Source: Escherichia phage vb_EcoS_bov11C2
Length of the DNA: 44,700 nt
Sequence record: MT884012.2
Strand: one strand, 5' to 3'
Shown here piece by piece: positions 3,545 through 41,840 of this stretch (position 1 is its first letter; every line of letters starts with the position of its first letter). Under the pieces are notes generated by a model that was not told where the DNA came from, did no database searches, and saw only the letters and a program-made list of their open reading frames with translations. The position numbers and the translations under genes are program-made.

Positions 3545-4631
3545 TCAACATTTGGCGGATCGAATGATTCGCCGTCACATCTTCACCCAGCGCCTGAGCA
3601 ATGATCAGGCGCGGAGGGTGCTGGCTATGTGGGAGAAGTTCCGGCCCACTTTACTTGGTAAGCTGACCGAGTTACTTGATGGCAAAAAGTCCATGAGCAA
3701 CAAGGCACTTACCACACTGTTAACTCAACTCGACAAGACCGTCAAAACGGAACTGCGCGCCGAGTTTAAAGTGCTGGCGGAGAGCCTTCAGGAGTTCGCC
3801 GACGCCGAGGCTAATTATCTAGCAGACACACTAACGGCAGCGATCCAGCCCGCTGTCGCCGTACCGGCTGTTGAAGTAGTTGGCGTTGTTACCGGCGCGC
3901 AGATTGCAGCGACGGCAATGAAAAACCCGTTCCAGGGTAATACTATGATGCAATGGCCTGATTCCCTTTCCGAGTGGACCAGGACGCAGATCGGCAATCA
4001 GGTGCGCGCCGGATTCATCCAGGGAAAGCCAACGATGGAAATTATCGCGGACGTGAGGCGCGCGCTAGGCGGTCGTAGTGCGCAAGCCATCTCAAGCGTT
4101 GTTAAGTCCGCAGTCAACCACTATGCGGCGACCGCCCGCGAACTAATGGTAAAAGCAAATGACGATATTCTCGAAGGTCGCCAATGGTTATCTACATTGG
4201 ACACGCATACTTCTCCCATGTGCCAGCTACGCGATCGCCTGTTTTATCCGGTTGATGTTACTCCCGATACGAAAGGGAAGCGCGGCGGGAAAGTGGTGGC
4301 TGGATCACAATATGGCGCTGGTCCGGGCAAGCTACATTATTGCTGCCGTTCGACGGAGACGTGGAAAGTCAAAGGTATGGAAGATTGGCCCAGTGGTAAG
4401 CGTCCGGCACTGAAGGCTGACGCAGGCAGATTGCTGAGTGAGCAGGTAGACGCGCAGACTGATTTCTTCTCATGGGTGCAGCGCCAGCCGCGCCATATCC
4501 TGGAAGAATTATATGGAGTGCAACGCGCCGACCAGATTATGCGCGGCGTGAAAGTGCCGAAGATGTTCACCGATTCTGGTGAACTGATGACTATTGCACA
4601 GCTTAAAAACCGGGGGTTATGGCGTGATTAA
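3528..4631 (+). CDS. head morphogenesis protein (Mu F / SPP1 gp7-like)
   Basis: 367 aa ORF overlapping the portal stop; order terminase-portal-MuF-like is canonical; sequence features fit that family from memory. Confidence 0.7.
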   Translation: MAKTINQHLADRMIRRHIFTQRLSNDQARRVLAMWEKFRPTLLGKLTELLDGKKSMSNKALTTLLTQLDKTVKTELRAEFKVLAESLQEFADAEANYLADTLTAAIQPAVAVPAVEVVGVVTGAQIAATAMKNPFQGNTMMQWPDSLSEWTRTQIGNQVRAGFIQGKPTMEIIADVRRALGGRSAQAISSVVKSAVNHYAATARELMVKANDDILEGRQWLSTLDTHTSPMCQLRDRLFYPVDVTPDTKGKRGGKVVAGSQYGAGPGKLHYCCRSTETWKVKGMEDWPSGKRPALKADAGRLLSEQVDAQTDFFSWVQRQPRHILEELYGVQRADQIMRGVKVPKMFTDSGELMTIAQLKNRGLWRD

Positions 4632-4953
4632 ATATGCAGCGATTGGGCTGGTTATCGGTCTGGCGGTAGGATTCTGGCTAGGTGACTCCTATCGCGCGGG
4701 CGTAGTGGCGGAGGCAGCGCAAGAAGCGCAAGCCCAAGCCCAACGGCAGCAAACTAAAGTTGTTGAGCGCTCCGTGCAGGCAGAACAAGCCCGCGACGTA
4801 GAATACCGGACTATCACGAAAGAGGTTGTTAAATATGTTACGCGCCCTAACCGCCCTGATTGTAGTTTTGATGCTGAGCGCGTGCGGATCAAGCAACGCG
4901 CCGTTGATGCCGCTAACGGAGTCGGCGCTGCGACCGCCGTGCAAGTTCGATAA
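4624..4953 (+). CDS. i-spanin (Rz-like), putative
   Basis: GTG start overlapping the upstream stop, RBS GGGGG; N-terminal TM helix IKYAAIGLVIGLAVGFWLG then Ala/Gln-rich coiled-coil-like region; contains the o-spanin ORF in the +1 frame. Confidence 0.6.
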   Translation: MIKYAAIGLVIGLAVGFWLGDSYRAGVVAEAAQEAQAQAQRQQTKVVERSVQAEQARDVEYRTITKEVVKYVTRPNRPDCSFDAERVRIKQRAVDAANGVGAATAVQVR

Positions 4954-5065
4954 CCCGTCCGCGGACCCCGACGAAGATTTGATGATTGACGTGAAAAATA
5001 TGGAATGCGGGGCGAAGCTAAGGGCGCAGGTGCTGGAGTTGCAGCAAATAATTAAGGGGCCGTAA
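4835..5065 (+). CDS. o-spanin lipoprotein (Rz1-like), overlapped
   Basis: Signal peptide MLRALTALIVVLMLSAC with lipobox L-S-A-C, Pro-rich short mature part, RBS AGAGG 10 nt upstream; starts inside the i-spanin frame and extends past its stop. Confidence 0.65.
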   Translation: MLRALTALIVVLMLSACGSSNAPLMPLTESALRPPCKFDNPSADPDEDLMIDVKNMECGAKLRAQVLELQQIIKGP

Positions 5066-5077
5066 TGGCCCCTTTTT
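5056..5077. terminator. bidirectional intrinsic terminator
   Basis: GGGGCC-gtaat-GGCCCC followed by TTTTT; sits between convergent genes (o-spanin stop 5065, minus-strand gene end 5080). Confidence 0.7.
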
Positions 5078-5079
5078 CG

Positions 5080-5844
5080 TTAGCGCGGAATGCCGCAAAT
5101 CTCGTTAAGTGTCTTCACATCCAGCGCCACTGCCGTGGATTTTGGCTTGTCCGGGTACGGGATGAATTGCTCGACTTCAGGCCATGCCTTAATCAGCTTC
5201 TTGTCAGTATTGTGCAGGTCCAGCACACCGGTAACGGTCAACTTGAATGCGTCATACTTCGCACGCAATTCGCGGCGGGCCTGGTCGTTACGGTCCAGGC
5301 GCTTACAGAAGTCATGGTCCGCAGGGTAATCTGCGCGACCGCGAGGGAGATATATCGGCAGCGCTTTCCCGTCCTCGTCCACTTCGCACACTGACGCGAG
5401 CATAACTGTCTCGAACCCCGGAACGATATCGCCGAGATCAGGCGCGAGCTTATTCATATATTTCTCTTCCCAGTATCCGCGATGTACGCGGTATCGGCGA
5501 CCGTCACCGCTCAAGGACAAGGTGCGAACATTTCCGCCTGCGTTGATTTCGAAAGTGGCGTCGTAAACGCTGCCGATACCTTTCGGGCGGTCGGTGTTAT
5601 AACTATATGTCGCCTTGTTGGTGTATACACAGACGCCGTACATCTGCGACTGGTCGTCGCGAATTGCCTTGATATGCTCGCGGAGCGCTGCGAACGTGCG
5701 AATGCCTTCCGGCATACAGTCCAGCGTTATTGCGTACGCCAGATCGCGTGAGTCCATCATGATTTGTTTGGCTTCGGTTGCGATTTCGTGGTCGCGCAGG
5801 ATGTTAGATAGGATCTGATTTTTAATGTCTTTTGTCAGTCTCAT
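5080..5844 (-). CDS. hypothetical protein, antisense island in head module
   Basis: 254 aa ORF on the opposite strand to all surrounding late genes; no confident family assignment. Confidence 0.6.
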   Translation of the reverse strand: MRLTKDIKNQILSNILRDHEIATEAKQIMMDSRDLAYAITLDCMPEGIRTFAALREHIKAIRDDQSQMYGVCVYTNKATYSYNTDRPKGIGSVYDATFEINAGGNVRTLSLSGDGRRYRVHRGYWEEKYMNKLAPDLGDIVPGFETVMLASVCEVDEDGKALPIYLPRGRADYPADHDFCKRLDRNDQARRELRAKYDAFKLTVTGVLDLHNTDKKLIKAWPEVEQFIPYPDKPKSTAVALDVKTLNEICGIPR

Positions 5845-5883
5845 TTTTGTGTCCTCATTATTGGGGCTTTCGCCCCGATTGGT

Positions 5884-6198
5884 TTAGTTAAATTTGATGT
5901 TGCCGCCGGTTGAGGTTAAGCGAGCACATACAGATTCAACGGCATCGACGCACATGAAATCGTTAAAGGCTTCGACCAGGGCGTTTATGAAAGATGCCGG
6001 AACCAGGCCGCAAGCCGGATTATCGAATGTCGCGGAGTTGACCGCCGCTTTTGCCGCTTCAGAAGCATTCATGCTCTGGCACAGATTCAGCGCTTCCGCG
6101 TTACGCATTGCGTGAAAGGTAAAGGTATTCGCTACGGTAGCTTTATTGAAACGGGCCATTGCGGCGTCTACTGGAGTTGCTACGGTCATGTTAGTCAT
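5884..6198 (-). CDS. hypothetical protein (Ala-rich, about 104 aa)
   Basis: ATG at 6198 with RBS AAGGAAAA 8 nt upstream; alternative ATG 6213; first gene after the minus-strand promoter at 6218-6263. Confidence 0.55.
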   Translation of the reverse strand: MTNMTVATPVDAAMARFNKATVANTFTFHAMRNAEALNLCQSMNASEAAKAAVNSATFDNPACGLVPASFINALVEAFNDFMCVDAVESVCARLTSTGGNIKFN

Positions 6199-6217
6199 TT
6201 TGTTTTCCTTCATATCT

Positions 6218-6263
6218 CTGTTGGTGTGCAACCAATATACTGCAACCAACATCCGCAATGCAA
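6218..6263 (-). promoter_or_regulatory. sigma70-like promoter with ATTGGTTGCA motif pair and operator-like inverted repeat
   Basis: Minus strand reads TTGCAT (-35, 6258-6263), 18-nt spacer, TATATT (-10, 6234-6239), then GGTTGCACACCAACAG; the 22-nt TATATTGGTTGCACACCAACAG is identical to 39900-39921. Confidence 0.5.
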
Positions 6264-6352
6264 GCGAATTTTGCGATTATTTTTATCGCTGATAATATTA
6301 AGGCGTGAAGTCAAGCGGGTGGCCCGCTTTGCCACAATCCCAGGGGGATAGC

Positions 6353-7054
6353 ATGAAACTTACTAAAGCAGAATATGACGCGTTGCCAGACGGTATGAAG
6401 GCGCTTTTTGTTGCCGATGGCGACGGGTATAAATCAACTTTCATGACCGCAGAAGAAGTACAGGCGGAAATTAAGGGTCTGAAAGACAATAACGCGAAGC
6501 TGGTGATCGAGAAGAAAGCAGAAGCTGAACGCCGCGCCGAAGCCGAGCGCCTTGCGAAAGAGAAAGAGGAAGCCGCCGCGCGCAAGAATGGCGACCTCGA
6601 AGCGATCGATAAGTCCTGGAAGGATAAGTTTGCGAAACACGAAGCAGACACATCGGGAAAAATCGAAGCCTACCGCAAGCAGATCCACGACCTAACCATC
6701 GGCAGCGCTGCCAAAGACCTGGCGTCGAAGCTGTTCGGTAAGAATGCGGGCATCATGCAACGCCACGTAATGGATCGCCTGACGCTGGAAGACGGCGAAG
6801 ACGGCAGCTTGAAAGTGCGTGTCTTGCAGGATGGCAAACCGTCCGCGCTGACTATGGAAGAGCTTGAAAAAGAGTTCCGTAATAACGCCGATTTCGCATC
6901 CGTCCTGGCTGGCACGCCAGCAGGCGGCGCTCCTAGCAAACCGACGCAGGTTGTCGAAGATGTGAAGTCTAAAATTACGATGGGCCATAGCTTCGGTATC
7001 ACCGATCTCACCAAACAGGCCGGGGATATCATCGCTAAAATGGGCGACGAGTAA
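6353..7054 (+). CDS. scaffolding protein (putative)
   Basis: ATG 6353 with RBS AGGGGGA; charged Ala/Glu/Lys-rich coiled-coil-like sequence immediately upstream of the major capsid gene. Confidence 0.55.
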   Translation: MKLTKAEYDALPDGMKALFVADGDGYKSTFMTAEEVQAEIKGLKDNNAKLVIEKKAEAERRAEAERLAKEKEEAAARKNGDLEAIDKSWKDKFAKHEADTSGKIEAYRKQIHDLTIGSAAKDLASKLFGKNAGIMQRHVMDRLTLEDGEDGSLKVRVLQDGKPSALTMEELEKEFRNNADFASVLAGTPAGGAPSKPTQVVEDVKSKITMGHSFGITDLTKQAGDIIAKMGDE

Positions 7055-8310: not shown

Positions 8311-8811
8311 ATGTATGGCGACCCGCAAACCTTTGTTATTTATGCCGCTGCGCGAGGCGTTGAAATTACGCCGAGCGACGCAACGCGACACCTTACTATC
8401 GTTAATGACTTCCTTAACGGCATAGACTGGATCGGCGAACAAGCAGACCCGACCGGAATTGACGCATGGCCCCGCGTCAACTACCCGTCAGACGGTAAGC
8501 CGGTGCGAAACACGCTTACTGAAGATTTGGCAGTAGTTCCCGCGGGGCAGATTGTAGACTTCGCATCAATCCCTGTCGCCGTTGAGCAAGCCGTTTACCG
8601 GCTGGCAATGTTGGTGGCTGACGAGGTCGATATTTCTCCTGTTGGCAGTGGTAAGGAGACTATCCGCGAGACTGTTGGCCCGATCACGATGGAATATGAC
8701 CCCGCGACGATTGGTAGCGGCGTCTCGTTCCCGTGGTGGGATGGCTTGCTGGGCCACTGGGTGAACGTAGACGGCAACGCAGCGGGTAATTTTGACGTAT
8801 TCCGGGGGTGA
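8311..8811 (+). CDS. head-tail connector / head completion protein (putative)
   Basis: ATG 8311 with RBS AGGAG; first gene after the capsid terminator; functional call by position only. Confidence 0.4.
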   Translation: MYGDPQTFVIYAAARGVEITPSDATRHLTIVNDFLNGIDWIGEQADPTGIDAWPRVNYPSDGKPVRNTLTEDLAVVPAGQIVDFASIPVAVEQAVYRLAMLVADEVDISPVGSGKETIRETVGPITMEYDPATIGSGVSFPWWDGLLGHWVNVDGNAAGNFDVFRG

Positions 8812-8812
8812 T

Positions 8813-8983
8813 ATGAATCCTGCATTACTGGCGGCTATTATCGCCGCAAATACTAAGCACCAACCAGAACCAGAGCCGGAACCAGAACCAGAGCCGGAAC
8901 CAGAGCCGGAACCAGAACCAGAGCCGGAACCAGAACCAGAGCCGGAGCCACCGGTACAGGAGGATGCTAATGGCGGGCTTTAA
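8813..8983 (+). CDS. small protein with (Pro-Glu)14 repeat
   Basis: ATG 8813 with RBS GGGGGTGA; hydrophobic N-terminus MNPALLAAIIAANTKHQ then 14 consecutive PE dipeptides. Confidence 0.5.
   Translation: MNPALLAAIIAANTKHQPEPEPEPEPEPEPEPEPEPEPEPEPEPEPPVQEDANGGL
8864..8947. repeat. tandem repeat, 84 nt of CCA-GAA / CCA-GAG / CCG-GAA units
   Basis: 28 consecutive Pro/Glu codons; the 18-nt unit ccagaaccagagccggaa recurs about 4.5 times. Confidence 0.9.
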
Positions 8984-11877: not shown

Positions 11878-12190
11878 GCGGGACAAAACGGGATGTCCCG
11901 TTTTGTCCCACCCCACAAATGTGCATATCTAATCACTTCCATTGCATAATCTAAAAGCGGGACAATCGGGACGTCCCGTTTTGTCCCACCCCACAAATGT
12001 GCATACCTATTCGGATTTCGTGCATAAACTAAGCGGGACAAAAAGCGGGACAAACAAGGTGCGGGACAAAGCGGGACAGCACCCCCGTCCCAGCCAGTGC
12101 TGCCGCGGTTTTTAGCCGATCGGGACAGGCGGGACAAACCCCAGTCTTTCAGACTAGACGGGGGTCAATGGCCCCCCTCGTCTGAGACTG
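11878..12190. repeat. GGGACA iteron/palindrome array R1
   Basis: At least 10 GGGACA copies plus inverted copies; 30-bp perfect palindrome at 11880-11909; second imperfect palindrome 11959-11987; 71-bp unit 12021-12091 and 52-bp hairpin unit 12139-12190 each with 1 mismatch to 39549-39716. Confidence 0.85.
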
Positions 12191-22335: not shown

Positions 22336-22415
22336 GTTATCATCTCCCATATTTGGTTGAGTTTTAGTATTGCACCGCTCAATCGAGAATGCAACCAATC
22401 TATGAGGATTTAGCT

Positions 22416-25198: not shown

Positions 25199-25260
25199 GA
25201 TGTTTTCCTTTTTAGTGGAGGCGGTATTGCCCCCGACGTGATTAAGATACTGCAACCAAC

Positions 25261-25731
25261 CTATTGGTTGCAAGTAAATTTTGCAACGTTTATTGCGTAA
25301 ATTTTCGGGACTAAATCGCTGCACGCCCGACGAATTGCCGCGATGTTCTTCGGGCAGTCTTCAATGATGACCAGTTCCGATACGTCCGCATAGCAGACCA
25401 TTTTGAACACAGCGTACGCTTTAAACTCTGGCGGCGGGGTGTCGTCCAGCATGTGGCGCATGAACAACCGGCCTCTAGGGAATACTTCCAATTGCTCGGC
25501 TGTGGTGTCCCAGCATTCTCGCTGCCGGTTGGTCAGATACGCGATCTCGAAGCCTTGCTCTTTGTACATGGTCAGCAGCGGCAGCATATCCATGTTCAGA
25601 TCTTCGCGTATATGCGCTTTGTGCCACTTCGCCCAAAAGGTGGATTTTGTTTTTATGCCCGGAACCAGGTCGGCACGCGCATCGCTTGAACCGTTAATAA
25701 CGCCATCCAAATCGCAAATCAGTAATTTCAT
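25261..25731 (-). CDS. HAD-family phosphatase-like protein
   Basis: N-terminal LICDLDGVI (HAD motif I DxDG), RBS GAGGAG; 156 aa. Confidence 0.55.
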   Translation of the reverse strand: MKLLICDLDGVINGSSDARADLVPGIKTKSTFWAKWHKAHIREDLNMDMLPLLTMYKEQGFEIAYLTNRQRECWDTTAEQLEVFPRGRLFMRHMLDDTPPPEFKAYAVFKMVCYADVSELVIIEDCPKNIAAIRRACSDLVPKIYAINVAKFTCNQ

Positions 25732-27151: not shown

Positions 27152-27187
27152 TCAATATAATGCAACCAATATTATTATGCAACCAAT

Positions 27188-27511: not shown

Positions 27512-28203
27512 TTTAAATTTTCCTCGTTAACCGCTATCGCGAAGCCGCGCGGAGTGAGCGAGCGGATTAATTTTGTGCGGGCTGATTTACCACCGAGGCG
27601 ACTATACTGTTTCGAGTACCCTTTTTCAACGAAAACAGGTTTCTTCTCTGGCATACGGAAGCCGTTGCCGGTCCATAAGCAGGTCAGCTTCGGATATGAA
27701 TCGCGGGCGTTGATGTATTCCGGGAAGAGCGGGTGTACGTCATCCTCCGGCAGATATCCACCATACTCCCACGGATCAAACGAGTGGTCTGGCTTGCGCC
27801 ACTGGGTGGAAAGCACACTGCGCGGATTCTCAATCATATATGGCACCTCGAAGAAGTCACCCAGGTAGGCGGCGATCTTCGCGGTGCGCACCGCCTTAAG
27901 CTGAAAGGCCGGGTCTTTCGCACGCTTGCGCGGGAAAGCTGGCGCGCCGCTCACTGCCAGATCCGTACACGGAGGGAACGCATAGATGATATCCGGCGTA
28001 CCGAAATCGCCATTCATCGCGCGGTCTACGAAGTCCAGATCGATAAACTCATTGCGATACCGGATTCCGCGGCCATAAATCCGGTAGTCAAGGTACGACC
28101 CGTGATCGGCTTCGGAGTAGTTAAAACAGTAGCACTTATGCCCCATCTCGGCAGCACGCTCAATCATCAAGCCGCTGCCGTCGAACAATGACCAGATTAT
28201 CAT
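27508..28203 (-). CDS. C5-cytosine DNA methyltransferase-like protein
   Basis: Motif order FDGSG (motif I-like), FPPC..LAVSGA (motif IV PC-like), ENP (motif VI ENV-like); only 231 aa so a target-recognition region may be reduced. Confidence 0.45.
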   Translation of the reverse strand: MIIWSLFDGSGLMIERAAEMGHKCYCFNYSEADHGSYLDYRIYGRGIRYRNEFIDLDFVDRAMNGDFGTPDIIYAFPPCTDLAVSGAPAFPRKRAKDPAFQLKAVRTAKIAAYLGDFFEVPYMIENPRSVLSTQWRKPDHSFDPWEYGGYLPEDDVHPLFPEYINARDSYPKLTCLWTGNGFRMPEKKPVFVEKGYSKQYSRLGGKSARTKLIRSLTPRGFAIAVNEENLK

Positions 28204-29624
28204 TTGCGCGCCTTTTTAGCTTTCATGTATTCCATCAAATCGTCCTGAATATCTCGCTTACTGTCACGACGCTCGGCGACCAATTCGTCCAGTGTCCCGC
28301 GCGCCTGGATAATGTAGACGAATACAGGTCTAGGGTGTCCGGCCTGCATCTGGCGAACCGGCCCGATACGTTCAACGATCTGCGAAAAGTGCTCAAAGTT
28401 CCAGGTATCAGAGAAGATTGCCAGGTGATGACCGCCGTCCTGCAAGTTAAGGCCGTGGCCCGCCGATGCCGGGTGTGCAAACATGATGGGGATCTCGCCC
28501 CTGTTCCACGCTTCCATATCCTTATTGCCCTGCTTACCCTTACCCAACGCAACGCCGTGCGGGAATTTCTTCTTGAGACGCGCCAGATCATGCTTGTACT
28601 GGTATGCGACGAGCAACGGTGCGCCGTTCAACTCCTCCACGATACTTTCCAGCGCGTCCAGTTTAGCGTCGTGAATTTTCACCCATTCATCGGTGCGCTC
28701 GCCGTCTTCGTCGACTTTATACACGGCCCCCGAAGCAAGCTGAAGGCACTTAATTGTCTTCGATGCCGCGTTCGCCGCCTCCACTGTTCCGCTTTCCAGT
28801 TCGGCAAATAGCTCGCTTTCAAACTGGTCATAAATCTTGCGCGCTTTCTTCGGCAGGTCCACGACAACCGGAGTATAGATTGGCTTGTCGCACCCGAAGT
28901 ATTCAGCCGCGTCAACGGTTAGGGATACATCAGACAGGCGTTGTTGTATTTCTTTCTCAGAGTTCTTTAGCGGGGCGTGCTGCATAGTGAAGCTGCCAGG
29001 CTTAACAGGCTTGCTAATGAACCAGCGATCGGTAAACGCCTTATAGCTACTGCCGAGGCGTTCGCCACCGTCGACAAACCACGTCTGACCCCATAAGTCT
29101 TTCAGCCCGTTTGGCGCTGGTGTGCCGGTCAGGTTAATCCAGCGCTTGACGTGCTTATGTGCGATCGCCGCCAGTGCGCGTGCGCGCTTACTACCCTGCT
29201 TGCTTCGGTAGCCTTTCAGCTTAGTCGATTCATCGGCAACAACGACCGTAAAGGGCCATGCATCGCCGTAATAGTCAACCAGCCACTCAACCACATCATA
29301 GTTAACACAAACCACGTTAGCGTCGCTCTCAAGCGCTGCGATACGGTCCTTCTCCGGCCCAGTGCCGTCTACGACCAGTAGGGATGAGAACCGCCATTTC
29401 TCCTGCTCCGGGGGCCATGTACCTGACGCGACACGCAGCGGGGCCAGCACCAGTACGCGGTCCTCATGATGGGACAGGACGCCAGTCTGGAACATTTTAT
29501 TCAGCGCCCACATTGTCGCGCCGGTTTTACCGGATCCCATTGTCGCCCAGATATTACATCGCTTATGCTTGAGGATGAACGCGGTTATCAACTTCTGATA
29601 TTCGCGGCGTCGGAATCGTGCCAT
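28200..29624 (-). CDS. SNF2-family helicase
   Basis: ATG 29624; Walker A MGSGKT, DExx-like VVADEST, motif III LTGTPAPN, C-terminal helicase domain. Confidence 0.8.
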   Translation of the reverse strand: MARFRRREYQKLITAFILKHKRCNIWATMGSGKTGATMWALNKMFQTGVLSHHEDRVLVLAPLRVASGTWPPEQEKWRFSSLLVVDGTGPEKDRIAALESDANVVCVNYDVVEWLVDYYGDAWPFTVVVADESTKLKGYRSKQGSKRARALAAIAHKHVKRWINLTGTPAPNGLKDLWGQTWFVDGGERLGSSYKAFTDRWFISKPVKPGSFTMQHAPLKNSEKEIQQRLSDVSLTVDAAEYFGCDKPIYTPVVVDLPKKARKIYDQFESELFAELESGTVEAANAASKTIKCLQLASGAVYKVDEDGERTDEWVKIHDAKLDALESIVEELNGAPLLVAYQYKHDLARLKKKFPHGVALGKGKQGNKDMEAWNRGEIPIMFAHPASAGHGLNLQDGGHHLAIFSDTWNFEHFSQIVERIGPVRQMQAGHPRPVFVYIIQARGTLDELVAERRDSKRDIQDDLMEYMKAKKARK

Positions 29625-29628
29625 TTCT

Positions 29629-29847
29629 TTATTCCGCCTTTTTCCAGACTTCGGTTTCACTGTTCCAGTTCCTTTTTGTAGCGTCGTAGTTGGTGGCGTG
29701 TCCGATGTGCACACCGGTAGCCCGGAAGCTCTTAAATTTTTGCCAGCACACCGTCAACGGCAGCGGATCATTCATGCCCGCAATAAACCATACGCGATCG
29801 CCCGGTTTACATTCGCCCAGCTTGGTGAGTCGGTAATGTTCTTTCAT
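29629..29847 (-). CDS. hypothetical protein
   Basis: ATG 29847 with RBS GGGAGA; 72 aa. Confidence 0.4.
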   Translation of the reverse strand: MKEHYRLTKLGECKPGDRVWFIAGMNDPLPLTVCWQKFKSFRATGVHIGHATNYDATKRNWNSETEVWKKAE

Positions 29848-29890
29848 CGTCATGTCTCCCAAAAATGGCGGGACAAGCCCGCCGTATTAA

Positions 29891-30064
29891 TTATTTTTGT
29901 TCTGCACGGTAGCGGCGCTGCCGTTCGCGCTCTTTCTTATTGCGGCACGATTTGCACTCTGCCCGATGCCCGTCTGGACTGCGCGCAGTTTTACCGGTGT
30001 ATTTGTGGAACTGGGATAGCGGCTTGACACAGCCGCAATTACTACAACGTTTTTCTTCAATCAT
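29891..30064 (-). CDS. small zinc-ribbon protein
   Basis: ATG 30064 with RBS GAGGA; CSNCGC ... CKSCRNK (two CxxC pairs); 57 aa; promoter-like element with motif variants at 30108-30129. Confidence 0.4.
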   Translation of the reverse strand: MIEEKRCSNCGCVKPLSQFHKYTGKTARSPDGHRAECKSCRNKKERERQRRYRAEQK

Positions 30065-30104
30065 CTCTAAAATCCTCGATATGGCTAACCGGCACACTAT
30101 ACCG

Positions 30105-30383
30105 CTATGCGACCAATTCAGCAACCAATAAATCGCAGTCGGATATGTTGTCGATAACGCGAACGTCAGCACCGCGGCGGGCCATTCGCTCATGTTCACG
30201 TACCTGGTGCGGCTTCGGTTTTCCTCCGGGGCGCTTCACTTCGACGAACACTATTTTGCCGTTGATGATAATAATCAGGTCGGGCGCACCCGCGCGCCCC
30301 TCCCATGCCAGTTTTCGGCAGAATCCGCCGACCTCTTTCACCCGTTTCATCAGGTGACTTTGAATCTTGCCTTCCGGTGTCAT
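30105..30383 (-). CDS. VRR-NUC-like nuclease
   Basis: ATG 30383 overlapping the polymerase stop; GAPDLIIIINGKIVFVEVKRPGG ... Q pattern (PD ... E-V-K). Confidence 0.55.
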   Translation of the reverse strand: MTPEGKIQSHLMKRVKEVGGFCRKLAWEGRAGAPDLIIIINGKIVFVEVKRPGGKPKPHQVREHERMARRGADVRVIDNISDCDLLVAELVA

Positions 30384-32674
30384 CACTTCCTGTACCTGTA
30401 CATGATGTCGCCTTCGGCGGCAAGTGGGAAGCCTTTCGCCCAAACAGGCAGGTCGCACATCAGCGCGCACAACTCCTCGGTTGTGTAGTCGTCAGTATCC
30501 GGCACTTCGGTTATCAGTTCATCGTGTACGGACAGTACGATCTCATATCCCGCAGCTTCAACGCCAGGCATGGACCATGCGAGGATATCGCGACACAGCG
30601 CCTGTACGATGTTTTCCGTGAGTTTGCCGCCGTAGGTGTACTGGAAGCCCCACTGGCGCGTCGTCTGATTCTCACCCTGATATTTAATGCGGGTGCTGGT
30701 GCGCTTCTTGCCGGTGTCTTCGTCAATCTCGGTCGTGACAGACAGCCCGATGCCTGGGTAGCTCATGATGCGCCCCGACGGCAACTCAATTTTCAACCAC
30801 CACCCCGCGGCGTTCGGGTCGTCGCGCTCCTCGTCGAAGGTTGGGTCGTGCTTCGCCTTCGTGCGCACAATCTTGAGCGCTTTCCTACCGTCCGGGCGAA
30901 CGTTAGCGCCCGCCCAGTATGCTTTGCCCGGATTGCGGATTGCGCACAACACCGCGTCCTCAAGCTCGGCCCAAAAGGCTACCGTCTTCGGGTGAGCCTC
31001 ACGCCACATACGTTTGATCGCGTCACAGGTAAGCCATACGTTTTTCGGCAGTATGTAGGTTGGGCGCTCATCCTTCTTGCCAGGCTTCGGCGGGCGCTTA
31101 GCTTCGTTAATGCGGGCGTACTCATAACCGCGTTTCGCCGCCGCCCAAATGTGATCCGGGAATGTACCCTTCATCACGTCCGCCATAGTGTAAAGGTCGA
31201 GGCCCAGGTTTTTAGCGAACTGCAAGAACGCCGCGACGCCGCCACCATAGCCCAGTCCCAATTCACACGCCTTTCCGATCTGGCGTAAGTCTTTGCGGTT
31301 GGCTTTGATGTAATCCGGGTCAAGGCCGAACATCTTACCGGCAGTCTCGCAGTAAATATCGCGGCCCGCCTTAAACACCATGAGCGCTGTTTTCTCGCCC
31401 GCGATCCAGGCAAGTCCACGCCCTTCCACGTTGGAGTAGTCCGCTACGACAAACTTCTTGCCCTTAGCCGGGATAATGCACCCGCGAACGGTCGAGGCTG
31501 TTAGCTTAGATATGTCATACGCCCAGTGCGCGGTCCCGCGTAACAGGGAATTGATGCCGTTGGTGAGCATGTGCGACCGGACCCAAAAAGCAACGTCGCT
31601 CTCGCCTTCGCGGCGCTTAATCTTCCCTTCGTGATCGTCGCTATACTCGCCGCGTGCCAGGTTTTGAGGCTGGAAGCCTTTACCCGCCCAGCGCAGCGTG
31701 CGCTTTGCGCCACCATACTGAAGACACCCACGGCGGCGACCGTCGGCAGACAGGCCATTAACGAGCGGATTGTACTTAGTCGATGCCGTTGATGACGCGC
31801 CGAGGCGCATTTCGATAAGCGCTTTGCCTTCGTCGGGGAAGTCCGGGTCTTCAAGCAGGTCGTTAAGTGTGGATTTCTGCGCGTTGTGGATTGTGAACGC
31901 CGGGGCGATATCACGCAGGATTGGCAGGAAGTCATTGCCTGTCAGTTTACCACCAAATCGCTCCCAGGCTTCCTCCTTCAATTCTTCCTTATGCGCCTGC
32001 ACCGCTTTGATCGCGGCGTTCGCCAGGTCAACGTCCACATAGAAGCCGCGGTCGTTGATCAACTGGTCGATAAGCAGGATTTCATCTTCCTTCGGGGTAT
32101 TACCCCAGTCCGGTATGCGCCAGTAGACCTCCCGCATCGCGATAATATCCAGCGCGGCATATCGCAGAAATTTGGCCCATTCTTCAGGGTGAGTCTCGCG
32201 AGTGTAGCGGCGTATTTTGTAGGTCTTAGGGGTAGGCTTACAGAATCGTTTGATCAGCGCCTTGCCTGCCTTATCCTTCGCGTGCTCTGCGTCAACGCCC
32301 AGCACCTGACACTGCATATCGAGGCTACCCGGCAGCGCGTGCCGAAAGGCCATAATCATGGTATCTTCGATCTGGCTTACCGGCAGGTCGATTCCCCACT
32401 TCTCACGGATAACCAGGCGGTCAAACAGGAGGCCGTTAGCCATCACGATTTTTGCTTTCTTGCGGGATACCTGACGGAGCGCCTTGCGCAGTTCACGCGG
32501 CATTGTTGGGGATTCAGTGGCATCCCATGTCTGCACGCGGCCTTCGTCGATGGCGTAGGTGCAAATCATAATCTCGGTGGTTGGGTGCTCTGCGTAGGCG
32601 TACGCCCCTACTTTCTTCAGGTCAACCCCGCTGAATGTCTCGGTGTCGAGAAACAAGCGTTCGAAGTCTTTCAT
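30383..32674 (-). CDS. DNA polymerase, family A, with 3'-5' exonuclease domain
   Basis: Exo I motif FLDTETFS; motif B RQIGKACELGLGYGGG (R-x3-K-x6-YG); motif C VHDELI; 763 aa. Confidence 0.9.
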   Translation of the reverse strand: MKDFERLFLDTETFSGVDLKKVGAYAYAEHPTTEIMICTYAIDEGRVQTWDATESPTMPRELRKALRQVSRKKAKIVMANGLLFDRLVIREKWGIDLPVSQIEDTMIMAFRHALPGSLDMQCQVLGVDAEHAKDKAGKALIKRFCKPTPKTYKIRRYTRETHPEEWAKFLRYAALDIIAMREVYWRIPDWGNTPKEDEILLIDQLINDRGFYVDVDLANAAIKAVQAHKEELKEEAWERFGGKLTGNDFLPILRDIAPAFTIHNAQKSTLNDLLEDPDFPDEGKALIEMRLGASSTASTKYNPLVNGLSADGRRRGCLQYGGAKRTLRWAGKGFQPQNLARGEYSDDHEGKIKRREGESDVAFWVRSHMLTNGINSLLRGTAHWAYDISKLTASTVRGCIIPAKGKKFVVADYSNVEGRGLAWIAGEKTALMVFKAGRDIYCETAGKMFGLDPDYIKANRKDLRQIGKACELGLGYGGGVAAFLQFAKNLGLDLYTMADVMKGTFPDHIWAAAKRGYEYARINEAKRPPKPGKKDERPTYILPKNVWLTCDAIKRMWREAHPKTVAFWAELEDAVLCAIRNPGKAYWAGANVRPDGRKALKIVRTKAKHDPTFDEERDDPNAAGWWLKIELPSGRIMSYPGIGLSVTTEIDEDTGKKRTSTRIKYQGENQTTRQWGFQYTYGGKLTENIVQALCRDILAWSMPGVEAAGYEIVLSVHDELITEVPDTDDYTTEELCALMCDLPVWAKGFPLAAEGDIMYRYRK

Positions 32675-32841
32675 TGCTTTATCCTCACTACGGCGTCAGC
32701 GCTGCCGATCATGGAGAAGATGCCGTCGGACAGGGCGATCTCTTCTCCATTGTTGCGAATCTCGGCAACTGTGAAATACTCGCCCAGCAATTTGGACCAT
32801 ACCTGCATTCCGACTTTTACTTCGCTGGCTTTAATACGCAT
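32671..32841 (-). CDS. small hypothetical protein (56 aa)
   Basis: Not in the ORF track (under 60 aa); ATG 32841, stop overlaps the polymerase ATG; fills the gap between SSB terminator and polymerase. Confidence 0.3.
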   Translation of the reverse strand: MRIKASEVKVGMQVWSKLLGEYFTVAEIRNNGEEIALSDGIFSMIGSADAVVRIKQ

Positions 32842-32856
32842 TTTTCATTGTCCTAT

Positions 32857-32880
32857 TAAAAAGCCCGCATTAAGCGGGCT
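32857..32880 (-). terminator. intrinsic terminator after SSB gene
   Basis: Minus strand AGCCCGC-loop-GCGGGCT followed by U-run. Confidence 0.6.
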
Positions 32881-32899
32881 TGAATAGTGGGCTTTGCCC

Positions 32900-33682
32900 T
32901 TAACGGCGGCGACGTTTACGTGGCGCTTCGTCTTCGTCGTCGTCCTCATCTTCGTCATCGCGTGGCTTACGACGTTTGCGAGGTTTTTCATCTTCCTCAT
33001 CGTCGTCGTCATCGCGGCGCTTGGATTTCTTGGACTTGCGCGGCTTGTCATCTTCATCATCGTCATCACGACGTTTTGACTTTTTGGACTTGCGCGGTGC
33101 TTCGTCTTCGTCGTCGTTGTCCAGGTCTTCGTCGGAACATGAAGACCCGCCACCTCCGAAGGCTTCGCCGTCTTCACGGAATCGCAGACCCAGCAAGCCA
33201 GCCCCGAGACCCTTGCCGTTGGTATTGTTCCACGCCCAGATATCAAGGGACACGTTGCAATAACAACCGGAGTAGATCTCCTGGCCTTCAATCTCGTCGC
33301 CGTCGATGGTCAGACCTTGTTCGGTCTGCTTCTCGCCGAGTGACGTTTGAATGATAGGCTGTTTGAACGATTTGGCGTTGATATACAACATGCCTTCGAA
33401 TTCTTCGGTCACTTCGTCACGCTCGTCACCGTCGCGGACTGCGCATTCCTTAGAATCCTGGGCGTAGTGGCGGTCCATCCACTTATCGGCATTCTTCTCG
33501 GATTTCAGCTTGTCGGTGAGCACTGCGCGCGCTGCCGCTTCCACTTTGTCCACCTGCGGATCTTCTTTATCCAGAAGAATCACGGCACGGTATGCCGGTT
33601 TTTGTCCATCCTGTTTAGGGGTATCACGTTCCCAGATTTTCAGGAAGCATACGCGCACATTTTTCAGGTTGACTTTAGCCAT
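32900..33682 (-). CDS. ssDNA-binding protein (T7 gp2.5-like / DUF2815-like) with mixed-charge repeat tail
   Basis: ATG 33682 with RBS GAGGAA; N-terminus MAKVNLKNVRVCF typical of this family from memory; C-terminal 90 aa of alternating PRKSKKSKRR and DDDDEDD blocks. Confidence 0.55.
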   Translation of the reverse strand: MAKVNLKNVRVCFLKIWERDTPKQDGQKPAYRAVILLDKEDPQVDKVEAAARAVLTDKLKSEKNADKWMDRHYAQDSKECAVRDGDERDEVTEEFEGMLYINAKSFKQPIIQTSLGEKQTEQGLTIDGDEIEGQEIYSGCYCNVSLDIWAWNNTNGKGLGAGLLGLRFREDGEAFGGGGSSCSDEDLDNDDEDEAPRKSKKSKRRDDDDEDDKPRKSKKSKRRDDDDDEEDEKPRKRRKPRDDEDEDDDEDEAPRKRRRR

Positions 33683-33772
33683 TTTCCAATTCCTCATTTT
33701 CACATGTATCGGGGTTATTGGAAGCCACCCCGTTCGGCTTGGTTGCCAATTTACTTGGTTGCGCCTGAGCGG

Positions 33773-34015
33773 TCAAGCATTTTCATTAAAAAGATTTCTG
33801 GTCACGTAGTTGGTCGCGTTCTCGATCCAGCTTAACGGCGGGCGGTTGATGTTCTTCTCCACCCAATCGACGGCAGCTTCGCTATAGCCGTCATCCAGCC
33901 AGCGGGTCGGATGTCGAATCATCCACGCCACCATTAACACGCCTTGCACGCAATGCAGGATAAAGCCCAGCGCGCCGAGCAAAAACATCAATAAGATTGC
34001 GAATACTTTATTCAT
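33773..34015 (-). CDS. small membrane protein
   Basis: N-terminal TM helix AILLMFLLGALGFIL; 80 aa; overlaps the exonuclease stop. Confidence 0.45.
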   Translation of the reverse strand: MNKVFAILLMFLLGALGFILHCVQGVLMVAWMIRHPTRWLDDGYSEAAVDWVEKNINRPPLSWIENATNYVTRNLFNENA

Positions 34016-35438
34016 TACTTAAGTCCTCGTCGGTAGCTTCAGACCACGCAGGGCGCGGGTCGTCGATTGGTGCTAATACCGGTTTTGCCGGTGCGCGCGT
34101 GATTTTATCACACAACTTCGCCCACACTTTCGGCTTCTCGTCCTTCAATACCTTCTCGGCATCAGTAGGGCTGAGTAATGTTTCTTTGTACATAACATCG
34201 CGCTTGATCCGGGCCTTCGTGAAGATCTCAATCACTTCGCTCTCGTCCGCCCACTTGCGGATTCCTTCCTTACCGGCAACCATCTTGAGGCCCAGCGATT
34301 CGCCATCACCCGCCATTACGGCCTTGAACACCGCGGACTCGATAGCCTTGATGTGCTGGCGCATTGCGTCAAGACCTTCATATGCCTTGCGCAGTTCCGC
34401 CGCGCTCATAGCGCCGGGGGCCGCTTCTTTCTTGCCACGCTTCGCACGTCGTGCCGCTTTGCGGGCTTCGCGGGCCATATTGCGGTCGTGATTGGCGCAT
34501 TCTTCCTCTGTCGCAATACTCACGTCGTCGCCCAGGTCTTCGTCTGTTGCCGTTGGTTGGGTCATCGTGTCGATTGCGGCCTTAGCGCGGGCGCTACACT
34601 GATCCGCAAATCGGCACCACTGGCACGCATCAACGCTCGGTCGGAAGTCGGCACGGGTGAGTCCCTTTTTGCCGCGGGCGTACGCCTCCAGGGCGGCGAT
34701 AGCACGCTTGGACGCAAACTTCGCGAATATCTCCAGGGCTTCTACCGAAATATCCCACTCCGACGCCCCGCCGCAATACGGCTGGAAGATAACCAGGCGC
34801 ACGGTCGTGATGTCGTACATGGATTGCAGCTTGCGCAGCAGGCCGAGCGCATACAGCATAAGCTGTTTGTTTTCTTTCGCCTCGACCTTATGCCGCCCCG
34901 TCTTCAGGTCGCCAACAATCAGCATGTACGTGCCGTCGGTCTTCTTCATGACCATGACCATATCGGCAGTACCGAACGTCTTAACCCGGTTGCCGTCGAT
35001 CTCGAAGCCAGAGTGTAGGACGCGGGTCAGATCGGTGCGCATCTCAAGCTGGACAAACTCCGCCACTTCGAGGAGCGGTCGCCAGTGGTCGACGTATGCG
35101 TCGCACTGTTTCACCATATCGTCGTTGACCAGTACGCCGCCTTTCGGCGCTTTCGGGTGTGCCTTTACCGGTCCCTTTCCTTCGTTCTCGACGTAGCACC
35201 CTTTGTACGTCTTCGCGGTTATCAGCTTCTCACCGGCGATAATGCGGTTTAGCACCACCTCAGATACGGTGTGCATACTCGTACCGTTAATCGCGGCTTG
35301 CCCGGATTCGTTCGGGATATCTTTTTCCACCACCAGGGCGGCTGGGCAACCCATCCATTTTTTAGCTCCGGATGGGCCGAGTAAAGAGTGTTCCGTGTTG
35401 CTACCGGATTGCGTTTTACGTTTTGGTTTAATCGTCAT
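34008..35438 (-). CDS. PD-(D/E)XK exonuclease, Cas4/RecB-like with Fe-S cysteine motif
   Basis: GDLKTGRHKVEAKENKQLMLYALG (D ... E-x-K ... Q..Y) and C-x2-C-x5-C (CQWCRFADQC) plus an N-terminal Cys; 476 aa. Confidence 0.7.
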   Translation of the reverse strand: MTIKPKRKTQSGSNTEHSLLGPSGAKKWMGCPAALVVEKDIPNESGQAAINGTSMHTVSEVVLNRIIAGEKLITAKTYKGCYVENEGKGPVKAHPKAPKGGVLVNDDMVKQCDAYVDHWRPLLEVAEFVQLEMRTDLTRVLHSGFEIDGNRVKTFGTADMVMVMKKTDGTYMLIVGDLKTGRHKVEAKENKQLMLYALGLLRKLQSMYDITTVRLVIFQPYCGGASEWDISVEALEIFAKFASKRAIAALEAYARGKKGLTRADFRPSVDACQWCRFADQCSARAKAAIDTMTQPTATDEDLGDDVSIATEEECANHDRNMAREARKAARRAKRGKKEAAPGAMSAAELRKAYEGLDAMRQHIKAIESAVFKAVMAGDGESLGLKMVAGKEGIRKWADESEVIEIFTKARIKRDVMYKETLLSPTDAEKVLKDEKPKVWAKLCDKITRAPAKPVLAPIDDPRPAWSEATDEDLSNE

Positions 35439-36641: not shown

Positions 36642-36671
36642 ATAATAGATTGGTTGCAGGATGGGTGTCAA
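36642..36671 (-). promoter_or_regulatory. strong sigma70-like early-left promoter
   Basis: Minus strand TTGACA (36666-36671), 18-nt spacer containing TGCAACCAAT, TATTAT (36642-36647); about 190-nt leader to ATG 36445. Confidence 0.55.
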
Positions 36672-36848: not shown

Positions 36849-37178
36849 ATGAATGTAAACGACGCAATCGAAATGTTAACGAAGACTGTTTGCAGTGAGA
36901 CAAGCCGGTCATGGGCATACACCGATGCCGTAGGGGCTGTGTTATTTGAAATCGAACGACTGCGCAGTATCGAAAAAGAATTGCGCGCCAGGCTGGAACT
37001 ACTCAACGGTACAGCAGCAAGCAAGCTGCAAAAACACAATGAAGAAATGGAAGAATACAAAAAGCAGGTTATCCGTTTGCGCGCCGAGGGCAAATCCTGG
37101 GCGATGATTGCTGAGTTGACCGGAATTAATCAGAGCACAGTTCGCTCCTGGGTACGCAATAATAAAACTTCTAAGTAA
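36849..37178 (+). CDS. HTH DNA-binding protein, candidate early regulator
   Basis: C-terminal helix-turn-helix SWAMIAELTGINQSTVRSWVRN; first gene of the rightward operon. Confidence 0.55.
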   Translation: MNVNDAIEMLTKTVCSETSRSWAYTDAVGAVLFEIERLRSIEKELRARLELLNGTAASKLQKHNEEMEEYKKQVIRLRAEGKSWAMIAELTGINQSTVRSWVRNNKTSK

Positions 37179-39548: not shown

Positions 39549-39716
39549 GCATAAACTAAGCGGGACAAAAAGCGGGACAAACAAGGGGCGGGACAAAGCG
39601 GGACAGCACCCCCGTCCCGCCCCGGATGACGCGGCTTCCAGAGGAGCGGGACAGCGGGACAGCACCCCAGTCTTTCAGACTAGACGGGGGTCAACGGCCC
39701 CCCTCGTCTGAGACTG
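39549..39716. repeat. GGGACA iteron array R2 (copy of R1 units)
   Basis: 70-bp unit 39549-39618 and 52-bp hairpin unit 39665-39716 each differ by 1 nt from R1; six GGGACA copies. Confidence 0.85.
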
Positions 39717-39876
39717 AATAAAATCCGGGGATTGCAAAACACACGGCAGCATGATGCGAAGTGCGGTCGCGGATGAACTAGGCAACCAATGCTAGTAGCA
39801 TTATGCTGAGTGAAAAATGCGGTTTGCAGTTGCAGCAGATAGCGATCAACTTTTTCATGCGCGTGATTAATATTGG

Positions 39877-39921
39877 TTGCATCCGCCCAGGCACCCTGCT
39901 ATATTGGTTGCACACCAACAG
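39877..39921 (+). promoter_or_regulatory. sigma70-like promoter with ATTGGTTGCA pair and operator-like inverted repeat
   Basis: TTGCAT (39877-39882), 17-nt spacer, TATATT (39900-39905), TTGGTTGCACACCAA at the predicted start, then RBS AGGAGG and ATG 39933. Confidence 0.5.
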
Positions 39922-39932
39922 GAGGGCGGAAC

Positions 39933-40112
39933 ATGAAAACCGAAATGGTTAATAAGCGCGAAATCAAGATCGGCGATACGGTAGTCCACAACGGGGAGCT
40001 TCGCACTGTGTGCAAGCGAGCGTTTAGCATCGATGGATTTATGGGCCTGCTACTTTGGGGCGACAGCTATCGTTTAGGGCATAAACTGGTTGAGAGGGTT
40101 ACGGAACTATGA
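39933..40112 (+). CDS. hypothetical protein
   Basis: ATG 39933 with RBS AGGAGG; 59 aa. Confidence 0.45.
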   Translation: MKTEMVNKREIKIGDTVVHNGELRTVCKRAFSIDGFMGLLLWGDSYRLGHKLVERVTEL

Positions 40113-40435
40113 AATCGATTATCTGGAATTACGCAATGGCTATGGCGGCGGCACAAGAAGCGGCGGAGTTCGCCGGTGAAGGAGCGGAAGCGGTCGAAAG
40201 ACTAGCGGCAGCGTGGTCCGTTGTTCGCGTAACGCAGCAGGCCATCGCCTGTATGCTTGAGCGCCGCTTCGACACGATGGCGGAGATCCAGCCGTTGGCG
40301 AACGCTATCCAGGACTACGCGCTTGCATTTGCCCGTGAGCGCCTGGCTTATCGCTTCGGGATCGGTGAGACGGCAGCGACAAACGTTGCCCGGATTAAAG
40401 CCCAGCGCGAACTATTCGCCCAGCTTGCGAAATAA
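40109..40435 (+). CDS. hypothetical protein
   Basis: ATGA overlap with the upstream gene; 108 aa, Ala-rich. Confidence 0.5.
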   Translation: MKSIIWNYAMAMAAAQEAAEFAGEGAEAVERLAAAWSVVRVTQQAIACMLERRFDTMAEIQPLANAIQDYALAFARERLAYRFGIGETAATNVARIKAQRELFAQLAK

Positions 40436-40444
40436 GGGGCCAAA

Positions 40445-40714
40445 ATGAGCCGTAGACGAGCCAAACAGCTTTCGTGGCATATTCCCCTGCATTGCATACG
40501 AATATGGGCTAAGAATGCGACTGAGGGCGATTCTGTATTATGGTGTTATCGCGATGACGTTAAGCCGTTAACGCAGACTCGCTACTTGCACCAGTTCGCA
40601 GCACAACACGATTTCAGGGTGCGGACTTCCTTGCAACCAATGGGAATACGTATTACATTACGCCGAAAGCCAGCCATTGAGCGGGTAGGCAAACACTGGA
40701 GACTGAGCAAATGA
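40445..40714 (+). CDS. hypothetical protein
   Basis: 89 aa ORF in the early-right operon series. Confidence 0.45.
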   Translation: MSRRRAKQLSWHIPLHCIRIWAKNATEGDSVLWCYRDDVKPLTQTRYLHQFAAQHDFRVRTSLQPMGIRITLRRKPAIERVGKHWRLSK

Positions 40715-41823: not shown

Positions 41824-41840
41824 TTATGCAAGCGTGATAT

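Follow-up and report, generated by a model that had tools for sequence, protein, structure and literature searches.

Two genes on the minus strand, nmad5 (open reading frame (ORF) A) and ORF B, form a small cassette at positions 5,080 to 6,263 in the DNA of Escherichia phage vb_EcoS_bov11C2 (sequence record MT884012.2), whose 44,700-nucleotide stretch is referred to in the following as the window. The window is a Dhillonvirus genome; its region 4600-6700 is 100% identical to that of the Escherichia phages vB_EcoS_bov15_1, bov16_1, bov22_1, and bov25_1D, and 94-95% identical to that of many other members of this genus (e.g., SSL-2009a). A total of 154 phage records match this region, 133 of them with a query coverage of at least 80%. 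According to the annotation of SSL-2009a, plus-strand genes for the terminase, the portal, head morphogenesis, and two spanins precede two minus-strand hypothetical genes, after which the plus strand is again used by the scaffold, the major capsid protein, and the tail genes. A first-pass annotation of the window had placed two minus-strand genes between the spanin pair and the scaffold gene and had described them as antisense to all of their neighbors; both genes are indeed present (254 and 104 amino acids (aa), respectively), and the portal, head morphogenesis, spanin, scaffold, and major capsid protein genes are all found on the plus strand. Both minus-strand ORFs are real genes, because they match protein families (Pfam Nmad5 and phrog_24635, respectively) and exhibit low ratios of nonsynonymous to synonymous substitution rates (dN/dS). 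The features of the locus are as follows.

4594-5065, plus strand: pair of i-spanin and o-spanin genes in the head module, about 37 kb away from the holin/endolysin genes (41877-42887)
5054-5074, both strands: G+C-rich hairpin (terminator scan and folding), 5 nucleotides (nt) past the nmad5 stop codon
5080-5844, minus strand: nmad5 (ORF A), 254 aa from an ATG start codon, matching PF18757 and phrog_1965 and carrying K216
5860-5879, minus strand: intercistronic hairpin GGGGC-GAAA-GCCCC between ORF B and nmad5, without a U-tract on the minus strand
5884-6198, minus strand: ORF B, 104 aa from the ATG at 6198, matching phrog_24635 (E-value 8e-67)
6239-6218, minus strand: 22-base-pair (bp) element TATATTGGTTGCACACCAACAG, with an exact second copy on the plus strand
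6241-6264, minus strand: upstream half of the cassette promoter, with a -35-like TTGCAT (6264-6259) and the 9-mer TTGGTTGCA at 6249-6241
6272-6299, plus strand: putative promoter of the scaffold and capsid genes (TTGCGA-16-TAATAT, read from the sequence), back to back with the cassette promoter

By its profile match, the 254-aa protein belongs to the Nmad5 family over its full length: residues 1-253 align with positions 1-206 of the 206-position PF18757 profile at a score of 204.6 bits (cut-off 27) and an E-value of 2.3e-60, and the protein also matches phrog_1965 (E-value 5.6e-62). The first-pass annotation had assigned no motif to either protein with confidence. For the larger one it had hinted, as an unverified idea, at the R/S/E triad of an ADP-ribosyltransferase; a reading as such a toxin is built on nothing but a loose spacing of R, S-L-S, and E-V-E. 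The S-L-S (110-112) and E-V-E (223-225) positions vary among the homologues (MLN or HLD, and EAF, respectively), so that the proposed triad is unconserved; the split beta-sandwich, NAD+-binding fold of ADP-ribosyltransferases was not found for the 254-aa protein. To this reading we accord practically no credence.

An exhaustive profile search recovered 840 clusters of the Nmad5 family, nearly all of them stand-alone proteins of 170-250 aa; in comparison with typical members of 200 aa, the window protein carries an extra insert of about 45 residues (roughly 113-160). The family signatures MRLT (1-4), T213, K216, L217, W221, P222, L246, N247, and P253 are all present, and these columns are invariant or nearly so in alignments of 31 and 113 sequences. 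Near-invariant across 113 diverse members are G104, T213, L217, W221, P222, P229, L246, N247, and the N-terminal R-L-T, while no conserved acidic or histidine residue was found among these 113 proteins. This conservation pattern would suit a binding protein better than an enzyme.

An AlphaFold2 (AF2) model of Nmad5 (31 sequences; predicted local distance difference test (pLDDT) 77; predicted template modeling score 0.75) comprises a helical hairpin at the N-terminus, one small beta-sheet, the long helix 178-208, and short helices. Its fold matched no solved structure; a search of a viral library recovered only other Nmad5 proteins, and a profile search of PDB sequences came back empty. Within this model, a beta-bridge involves residue 2, and the second isolated bridge residue is T213, from which we infer that the N-terminus packs against T213. 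The conserved N-terminus would thereby cluster with the T-x-x-K216-L-x-x-x-W-P motif, and a K216E substitution would reverse a charge in the middle of the most conserved surface of the family.

The dN/dS of nmad5 amounts to 0.10-0.15 in comparisons with four relatives that are 63-96% identical. A tblastn search detected Nmad5 at a coverage of at least 80% in 146 phage records, nearly all of them Dhillonviruses with 85-100% identity, and one with 63%. In the Dhillonvirus records the gene occupies the same position of the locus; one record carries a deletion. This natural deletion, in Teewinot (OK499993.1; 2500-2640), extends from about codon 34 to the last few codons of nmad5 and leaves the promoter and the terminator hairpin intact. 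Even a far more distant contig (L094) possesses the gene at the same position; its capsid protein (83% identity), portal (69%), and small terminase (54%) can be compared with an Nmad5 that is only 38% identical to that of the window, and Nmad5 diverges faster than its structural neighbors (38% versus 63-83%). Since Nmad5 is present genus-wide at a fixed position, it is not a recent insertion. The interpretation given in the first-pass annotation is only partly borne out: its idea of an inserted cassette may hold for the variable ORF B and fails for Nmad5, which is found in 146 records at this position with a single deletion. Taken from these comparisons, Nmad5 is an old, fast-evolving anchor of a small accessory-gene hotspot.

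ORF B is preceded by a GAAGGA Shine-Dalgarno sequence located 7 nt upstream of the ATG at 6198; alternative start sites are the TTG at 6258, to which the ORF extends mechanically, and position 6213, used in the annotation of SSL-2009a. The protein is acidic (pI 5.1) and mostly helical, and its dN/dS is about 0.15 against homologues with 58-65% identity from a Pantoea Dibbivirus and an Ackermannviridae phage. It was found in 71 records, about 60 of which are Dhillonviruses (out of about 150), so that more than half of the Dhillonviruses lack it; the remaining records are those of Pantoea phage AAM37 and Ackermannviridae phages, where the gene is one of many small hypothetical genes arranged in arrays. 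Between the cassette promoter and nmad5, Bas15 (PaulFeyerabend) is devoid of genes, and Dru_SM5 has an ORF of 53 aa. The intercistronic hairpin (-11.5 kcal/mol; none of 200 shuffled sequences folds equally well) is missing in Bas15, which lacks ORF B; because it is missing where ORF B is missing, it belongs to the ORF B module. ORF B of the window and the GGGGC-GAAA-GCCCC hairpin together look like an inserted module. The L094 cassette (5680-5997, 6738-7040) contains a 105-aa member of phrog_2510 upstream of Nmad5 and a 100-aa lipoprotein-like member of phrog_519 downstream of it; with different genes on both sides of Nmad5, the position acts as an accessory-gene hotspot.

Searches of ORF B with Pfam, NCBIfam, and PADLOC gave no match, and its AF2 model (pLDDT 49, 10 sequences) was too poor for a fold search. 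A zinc site formed by H29, C63, C83, and C91 was considered and dropped, as C83 is a valine in distant homologues. Likewise rejected was an identity of ORF B with the anti-Tmn gene, which is a different one (ORF35 of SMS22), and the KpAvs2 trigger Ksap1 of the Dhillonvirus SECphi18 is a different gene of 74 aa in the methyltransferase-phosphatase region.

The cassette possesses transcription signals at both of its ends. The G+C-rich hairpin folds with -20.9 kcal/mol on the plus strand and -19.2 kcal/mol on the minus strand (z-scores of -3.2 and -3.4, respectively), and it is followed by the tail UUUUUCGUU on the plus strand and by a weaker U-tract, AAUUAUUU, on the minus strand. It is the predicted intrinsic terminator of the plus-strand spanin operon and a weaker one of the minus-strand cassette; the bidirectional terminator proposed in the first-pass annotation is thus borne out as a structure that is stable on both strands. 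The spanin pair runs up to this hairpin, and because it ends at a structure shared with the cassette, the late head genes are divided by the cassette into two transcription units.

Read on the minus strand, the cassette promoter consists of cgcTTGCAT, an 18-nt spacer, TATATT, and ggttgcA, with TTGGTTGCA placed one base upstream of the -10 hexamer TATATT (6239-6234). Transcription is predicted to start near 6227 and to yield a leader of 29 nt. The 22-bp element comprises this -10 hexamer, the start of the transcribed region, and an inverted repeat, TTGGT-N5-ACCAA, that surrounds the predicted start site. As had been stated in the first-pass annotation, the element is common to the cassette promoter and a rightward operon (exact copies at 6239-6218 and 39900-39921); it is present exactly twice in the window, both copies point at their own downstream genes, and shuffled windows contained no match to it, even at three mismatches. 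Its core, TATATTGGTTGCACACCAAC, is retained at both sites in four Dhillonviruses, with the exceptions of one changed base in Dru_SM5 and a -10 hexamer of TAGATT at the second site of SSL-2009a. The upstream half of the promoter (6241-6264) is conserved in Bas15, Dru_SM5, Teewinot, LM40P1, and L094. RNA structure in the shared leader was considered and rejected, as the leader carrying the 22-bp element is essentially unstructured (-1.0 kcal/mol); the inverted repeat is therefore more likely a candidate site on the DNA for the binding of a protein.

The 9-mer TTGGTTGCA occurs in 12 exact copies in the window, as compared with 0.44 expected, and its copies, along with one-mismatch variants, are mostly intergenic and located in promoter regions. 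The members of this promoter class outside of the cassette, and the positions of the motif, are given below.

39873-39921, plus strand: sister promoter, with TTGGTTGCAT as the -35 region, a 17-nt spacer, TATATT, and the second copy of the 22-bp element
39934-41837, plus strand: small-gene operon under the sister promoter, sharing the 22-bp element with the cassette
6227-6249, 22390-22398, 25251-25272, 27161-27186, 30108-30128, 36650-36658, 39873-39912, and 43113-43144: sites of TTGGTTGCA

These sites belong to the cassette (two copies), the antisense gene cor in the tail module, the small-gene operon at 39.9 kb (two copies), the leftward DNA-metabolism genes (25.2 and 27.1 kb, and 30.1 kb in the form of one-mismatch variants), the divergent early region at 36.65 kb, and a position at 43.1 kb. 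The recurring layout is TTGGTTGCA-N8-TTGGTTGCA-N1-TATATT, in which the first copy provides TTGCA(T/A) at -35; at 25251-25272, and only there, the motif forms a perfect inverted pair. Most of the positions are conserved in four Dhillonviruses (among them SSL-2009a, Dru_SM5, and LM40P1), and the motif pair of the cassette promoter is also kept in the far more distant L094, whose promoter carries ATTGGTTGCAT twice. We consider it likely that a phage regulator uses TTGGTTGCA as its operator or activator site and would thereby define a non-late regulon. The operon at 39934-41837 ends at a strong terminator with a 12-bp stem (41841-41870) ahead of the holin gene, which makes it a unit separate from the late operon. 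The shared motifs fit a membership of the cassette in a non-late regulon, with expression before the late genes.

A candidate for the protein that would bind TTGGTTGCA is the 109-aa product of the plus-strand gene 36849-37178. This protein has helix-turn-helix matches only (HTH_23, HTH_28, Sigma70_r4_2), is annotated as a 'transposase' or 'resolvase' in relatives, and is encoded by the gene that opens the rightward primase-helicase operon. The two best sigma-70 consensus promoters of the genome (36671-36642 and 36776-36748, both on the minus strand, with 11 and 10 matches out of 12) face the leftward operon and are probably immediate-early; the first of them has TTGGTTGCA in its spacer. On the other side of the cassette promoter, the palindrome GCGATTATTTTTATCGC (GCGAT-N7-ATCGC; 6273-6289) overlaps the putative scaffold/capsid promoter; it occurs once in the window and is kept in other Dhillonviruses.

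Cassettes of the moron type offer a comparison. Viewed at the sequence level, the nmad5 cassette has its own promoter and terminator, and both it and cor, a superinfection exclusion gene of the same phage, lie antisense in late structural blocks under their own promoters, each of which carries TTGGTTGCA. ORF B resembles a moron in being variably present and common to unrelated phages, whereas Nmad5 is conserved across the genus. Unlike prophages with their morons, Dhillonviruses are virulent, and expression in the context of lysogenic conversion does not apply to them.

The central gene, nmad5, is already known and has been experimentally studied in the genus Dhillonvirus. Working with Dhillonviruses, Yamashita et al. 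(2025, Commun Biol 8:290; PMC11846954) obtained mutants capable of escaping the Tmn defence and traced the causal change to a K216E substitution in nmad5 of SM_A8 (CDS7), which corresponds to K296E in the longer annotation of SMS22. Reversion of K216E restored Tmn sensitivity, and an engineered K216E substitution conferred escape. The nmad5 deletion mutant was viable and retained plaque formation, and it did not escape Tmn; the gene could not be cloned in E. coli and is apparently toxic. For their designation of Nmad5 as a DNA-modification enzyme, these authors rely on a citation alone, namely that of the computational paper from which the Pfam name stems. The nmad5 gene of SM_A8/SMS22 is the same gene at the same position beside the scaffold and capsid genes, and the window protein is 88% identical to and colinear with SM_A8 CDS7 and retains K216. 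Given this identity and the preserved lysine, the published properties (dispensable, uncloneable, escape via K216E) should apply to the window gene. The study contains no description of the promoter class, of the variable slot with ORF B, or of an association between Nmad5 and the replication module, and bov15_1 and bov16_1, identical to the window here, are outside the set of phages studied in it. An escape-mutant survey of SECphi4 and SECphi18 does not mention the cassette.

A 2026 preprint (PMC13001434) reports that Tmn is directly activated by RIIB of T2, termed an early replisome factor. Like Nmad5, T-even RIIB is dispensable, made before the late genes (a prediction in the case of Nmad5), and tied to replication genes, and single substitutions in either protein alter the outcome with Tmn. 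The two differ in that rIIB nonsense mutations escape Tmn and the nmad5 deletion does not, and a homology of Nmad5 to T4/T2 RIIB was rejected, as the sequences show no relationship (hhalign probability 0.3%).

The neighborhoods of nmad5 in other phages were surveyed in 80 IMG/VR loci, many of which are apparently prophages from isolate genomes; the locus scans used two alignments narrower than the one with 113 sequences. At 31 of these 80 loci, nmad5 is immediately flanked by the gene of an Enc34-type single-stranded-DNA-binding protein (PF10991) on one side, at a median gap of 32 nt, and by that of a family-A DNA polymerase on the other; a DUF2800 (PD-(D/E)XK) nuclease is encoded upstream of them, and an SNF2 helicase further downstream. 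In most of the remaining annotated loci, Nmad5 comes after a CI-like repressor or adjoins a single-stranded-DNA-binding protein or a polymerase. Among individual phages, the lambdoid mEp235 has the gene in its PL operon, between N/Nun and cIII-kil-erf-ssb, and in the T1-like Hungariovirus C130_2 it belongs to an operon that consists of small hypothetical genes and is closely followed by holin and endolysin genes. In Vibrio phage Athena1, it shortly precedes the gene of replication protein O, and in the 72-kb Vibrio phage D285, it is found within a small-gene array. The window itself encodes the same four families in its own replication module.

28200-35438, minus strand: replication module of the window, with Pfam matches to the same four families
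34008-35438, minus strand: DUF2800 nuclease (Pfam)
32900-33703, minus strand: Enc34-type single-stranded-DNA-binding protein (Pfam)
30383-32674, minus strand: family-A DNA polymerase (Pfam)
28200-29714, minus strand: SNF2 helicase (Pfam)

In this phage, nmad5 is separated from the replication module by 25 kb and has a promoter of its own, which belongs to the same motif class. Between the genes of the Enc34-type binding protein and the polymerase (32674-32900, minus strand; L001 32797-32967), only a 56-aa ORF is present, orf45 of SSL-2009a; one of the candidate triggers of defence cloned for the escape-mutant study is a SECphi4 protein of likewise 56 aa, which may or may not be the product of the same gene. 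The gene neighborhoods would suggest a functional link between Nmad5 and the replication module, and an association with replication and recombination appears to be a more general context of Nmad5 than base modification. The Nmad5 proteins of the Yuaviruses M6, SN1, and LKO4 share MRLT, T-x-x-K-L-x-x-x-W-P-E, and the C-terminal LN-x-x-[IC]G-x-P with the window protein; in contrast to these phages, the window has no annotated hypermodification genes, and its nmad5 gene is located about 25 kb from the polymerase and has a promoter of its own.

Our best explanation, to which we assign about as much probability of being right as of being wrong, is that the cassette is a pre-late unit in which the conserved gene specifies an accessory factor that serves the replication module without being an enzyme, K216E changes the function of this protein, and ORF B is a swappable accessory. 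The cassette would then be a self-contained transcription unit, antisense in the head module and active before the late genes, and nmad5 would be co-regulated with the replication genes via the shared operator-like motif. Nmad5 would act as a binding or adaptor protein on the machinery of DUF2800 nuclease, Enc34-type binding protein, family-A polymerase, and SNF2 helicase, and its working surface would be formed by the N-terminal MRLT, the T213-x-x-K216-L217-x-x-x-W221-P222 motif, and the flexible C-terminal LN-x-x-CG-x-P. K216E would represent a change of function on this conserved surface and not a loss of function, and ORF B would be a horizontally exchanged small acidic accessory protein. 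Several observations weigh against this explanation. The -35 hexamer TTGCAT agrees with the TTGACA consensus at three of six positions only, which is the reason why a generic sigma-70 scan missed the cassette promoter, and the timing of the cassette is inferred, as no transcriptome of any Dhillonvirus was found in the literature searched (the bov25_1D paper covers host genes only, and the EE09 paper a single late time point). The last 27 or so residues of Nmad5, which include the C-terminal peptide, are modeled with low confidence (pLDDT below 50), and a catalytic role would be conceivable even though acidic and histidine residues are not conserved. The survey of 80 loci was seeded with one peptide pattern, and 35 of them fall into a single cluster at 70% identity. 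Furthermore, the thymidine hypermodification cluster that precedes the DNA polymerase gene of Yuavirus LKO4 includes nmad5 (as does such a cluster in SN1), and a phage polymerase is lacking in the lambdoid phages and in the T1-like phage with Nmad5, which means that the partner cannot be the polymerase in every case. Finally, the Tmn-sensitive deletion mutant shows that Nmad5 is not the sole trigger of Tmn, without revealing the role of Nmad5.

The alternative that comes closest, which we nevertheless consider doubtful, is that Nmad5, ORF B, or both are inhibitors serving host takeover or anti-defence without any role at the replisome, and that K216E extends the inhibition to Tmn. It would account for an uncloneable, apparently toxic gene whose deletion is yet viable, for an escape from Tmn by one substitution and not by deletion, and for the accessory positions in early operons of other phages; the fast divergence of Nmad5, the variable flanking slots, and a small, acidic ORF B exchanged between unrelated phages are all in keeping with it. 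Yet neither protein matches a PADLOC model or a named family besides Nmad5, a tight placement between binding protein and polymerase in many phages is unusual for anti-defence genes, and wild-type Nmad5 is not known to counter any defence system. Unlikely, in our view, is a further reading in which Nmad5 is a widespread, non-enzymatic replisome adaptor. With its conserved N-terminus, the T-x-x-K-L-x-x-x-W-P-E motif, and the C-terminal LN-x-x-CG-x-P peptide, it would dock on a partner in replication or recombination, for instance on the acidic tail of an Enc34/gp2.5-type binding protein; the resulting complex would be to Tmn in Dhillonviruses what RIIB is in T2, the early replisome feature that is read. 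K216E would remodel or mask the sensed surface, and this would account for an escape by the point mutant but not by the deletion mutant. If this were true, 'nucleotide modification associated' would be a misnomer drawn from one lineage.

Still less probable, in our view, is the interpretation implied by the Pfam name and adopted in the 2025 Tmn paper, namely that Nmad5 is a DNA-modification enzyme and that Tmn senses modified DNA. The family name and the presence of the gene in the thymidine hypermodification clusters of LKO4 and SN1 speak for it. Against this stands the annotation of the closely related SSL-2009a, in which no hypermodification pathway is found: the neighbors of nmad5 are spanins and scaffold, and there is no hydroxymethylase, no 5-hydroxymethyldeoxyuridine (5-hmdU) DNA kinase, no aGPT-Pplase, and no radical S-adenosylmethionine partner, but only Dam-like methyltransferases. 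Together with the only moderate restriction resistance of Dhillonviruses, this lack of hypermodification genes makes the 'nucleotide modification' label unfit here. Neither conserved catalytic residues nor an enzyme fold were found, some lambdoid, T1-like, and temperate phages that are devoid of modification genes possess homologues, and the deletion mutant remains sensitive to Tmn. We regard it as highly improbable that both proteins are head-assembly or virion components, a role that would find support in a position between the head-morphogenesis and scaffold genes that is conserved genus-wide and in the distant relative. The cassette is encoded on the opposite strand and has its own promoter, which is of a non-late class; the loss of nmad5 is tolerated in the published deletion mutant and has a natural counterpart in Teewinot, homologues elsewhere reside in early or replication regions, and fewer than half of the Dhillonviruses carry ORF B; moreover, no protein of 254 or 104 aa is listed in the published proteome of an EE09 lysate, in which 16 of 17 structural proteins were detected.

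Further observations concern other parts of the genome. Six direct GCGGGACA repeats (39560-39670), located in a 480-bp non-coding gap after the primase-helicase gene, look like the iterons of a replication origin, and GGGAC-containing hairpins related to these repeats are found at 11879-11978. Between the head-tail adaptor and head-closure genes, a small plus-strand ORF (8792-8983) encodes (PE)16, i.e., 16 uninterrupted Pro-Glu dipeptides specified by a hexanucleotide tandem repeat, plus two flanking prolines; as the homologous ORF of SSL-2009a is much shorter (38 aa), the length of the Pro-Glu repeat seems to be variable.

The nmad5 gene is among the very few phage determinants that alter the outcome with Tmn and is in use for the engineering of phages for therapy, and its function has so far been assumed from the family name. 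The combination of a missing hypermodification pathway, the lack of enzyme-like features, and the binding-protein/polymerase context would change the reading of Tmn escape. We suggest that placing Nmad5 with the replication module, rather than with base modification, is a modest but useful addition. The same can be said of the TTGGTTGCA promoter/operator class, which was not found described in the papers searched and which would provide a first handle on temporal regulation in Dhillonviruses.

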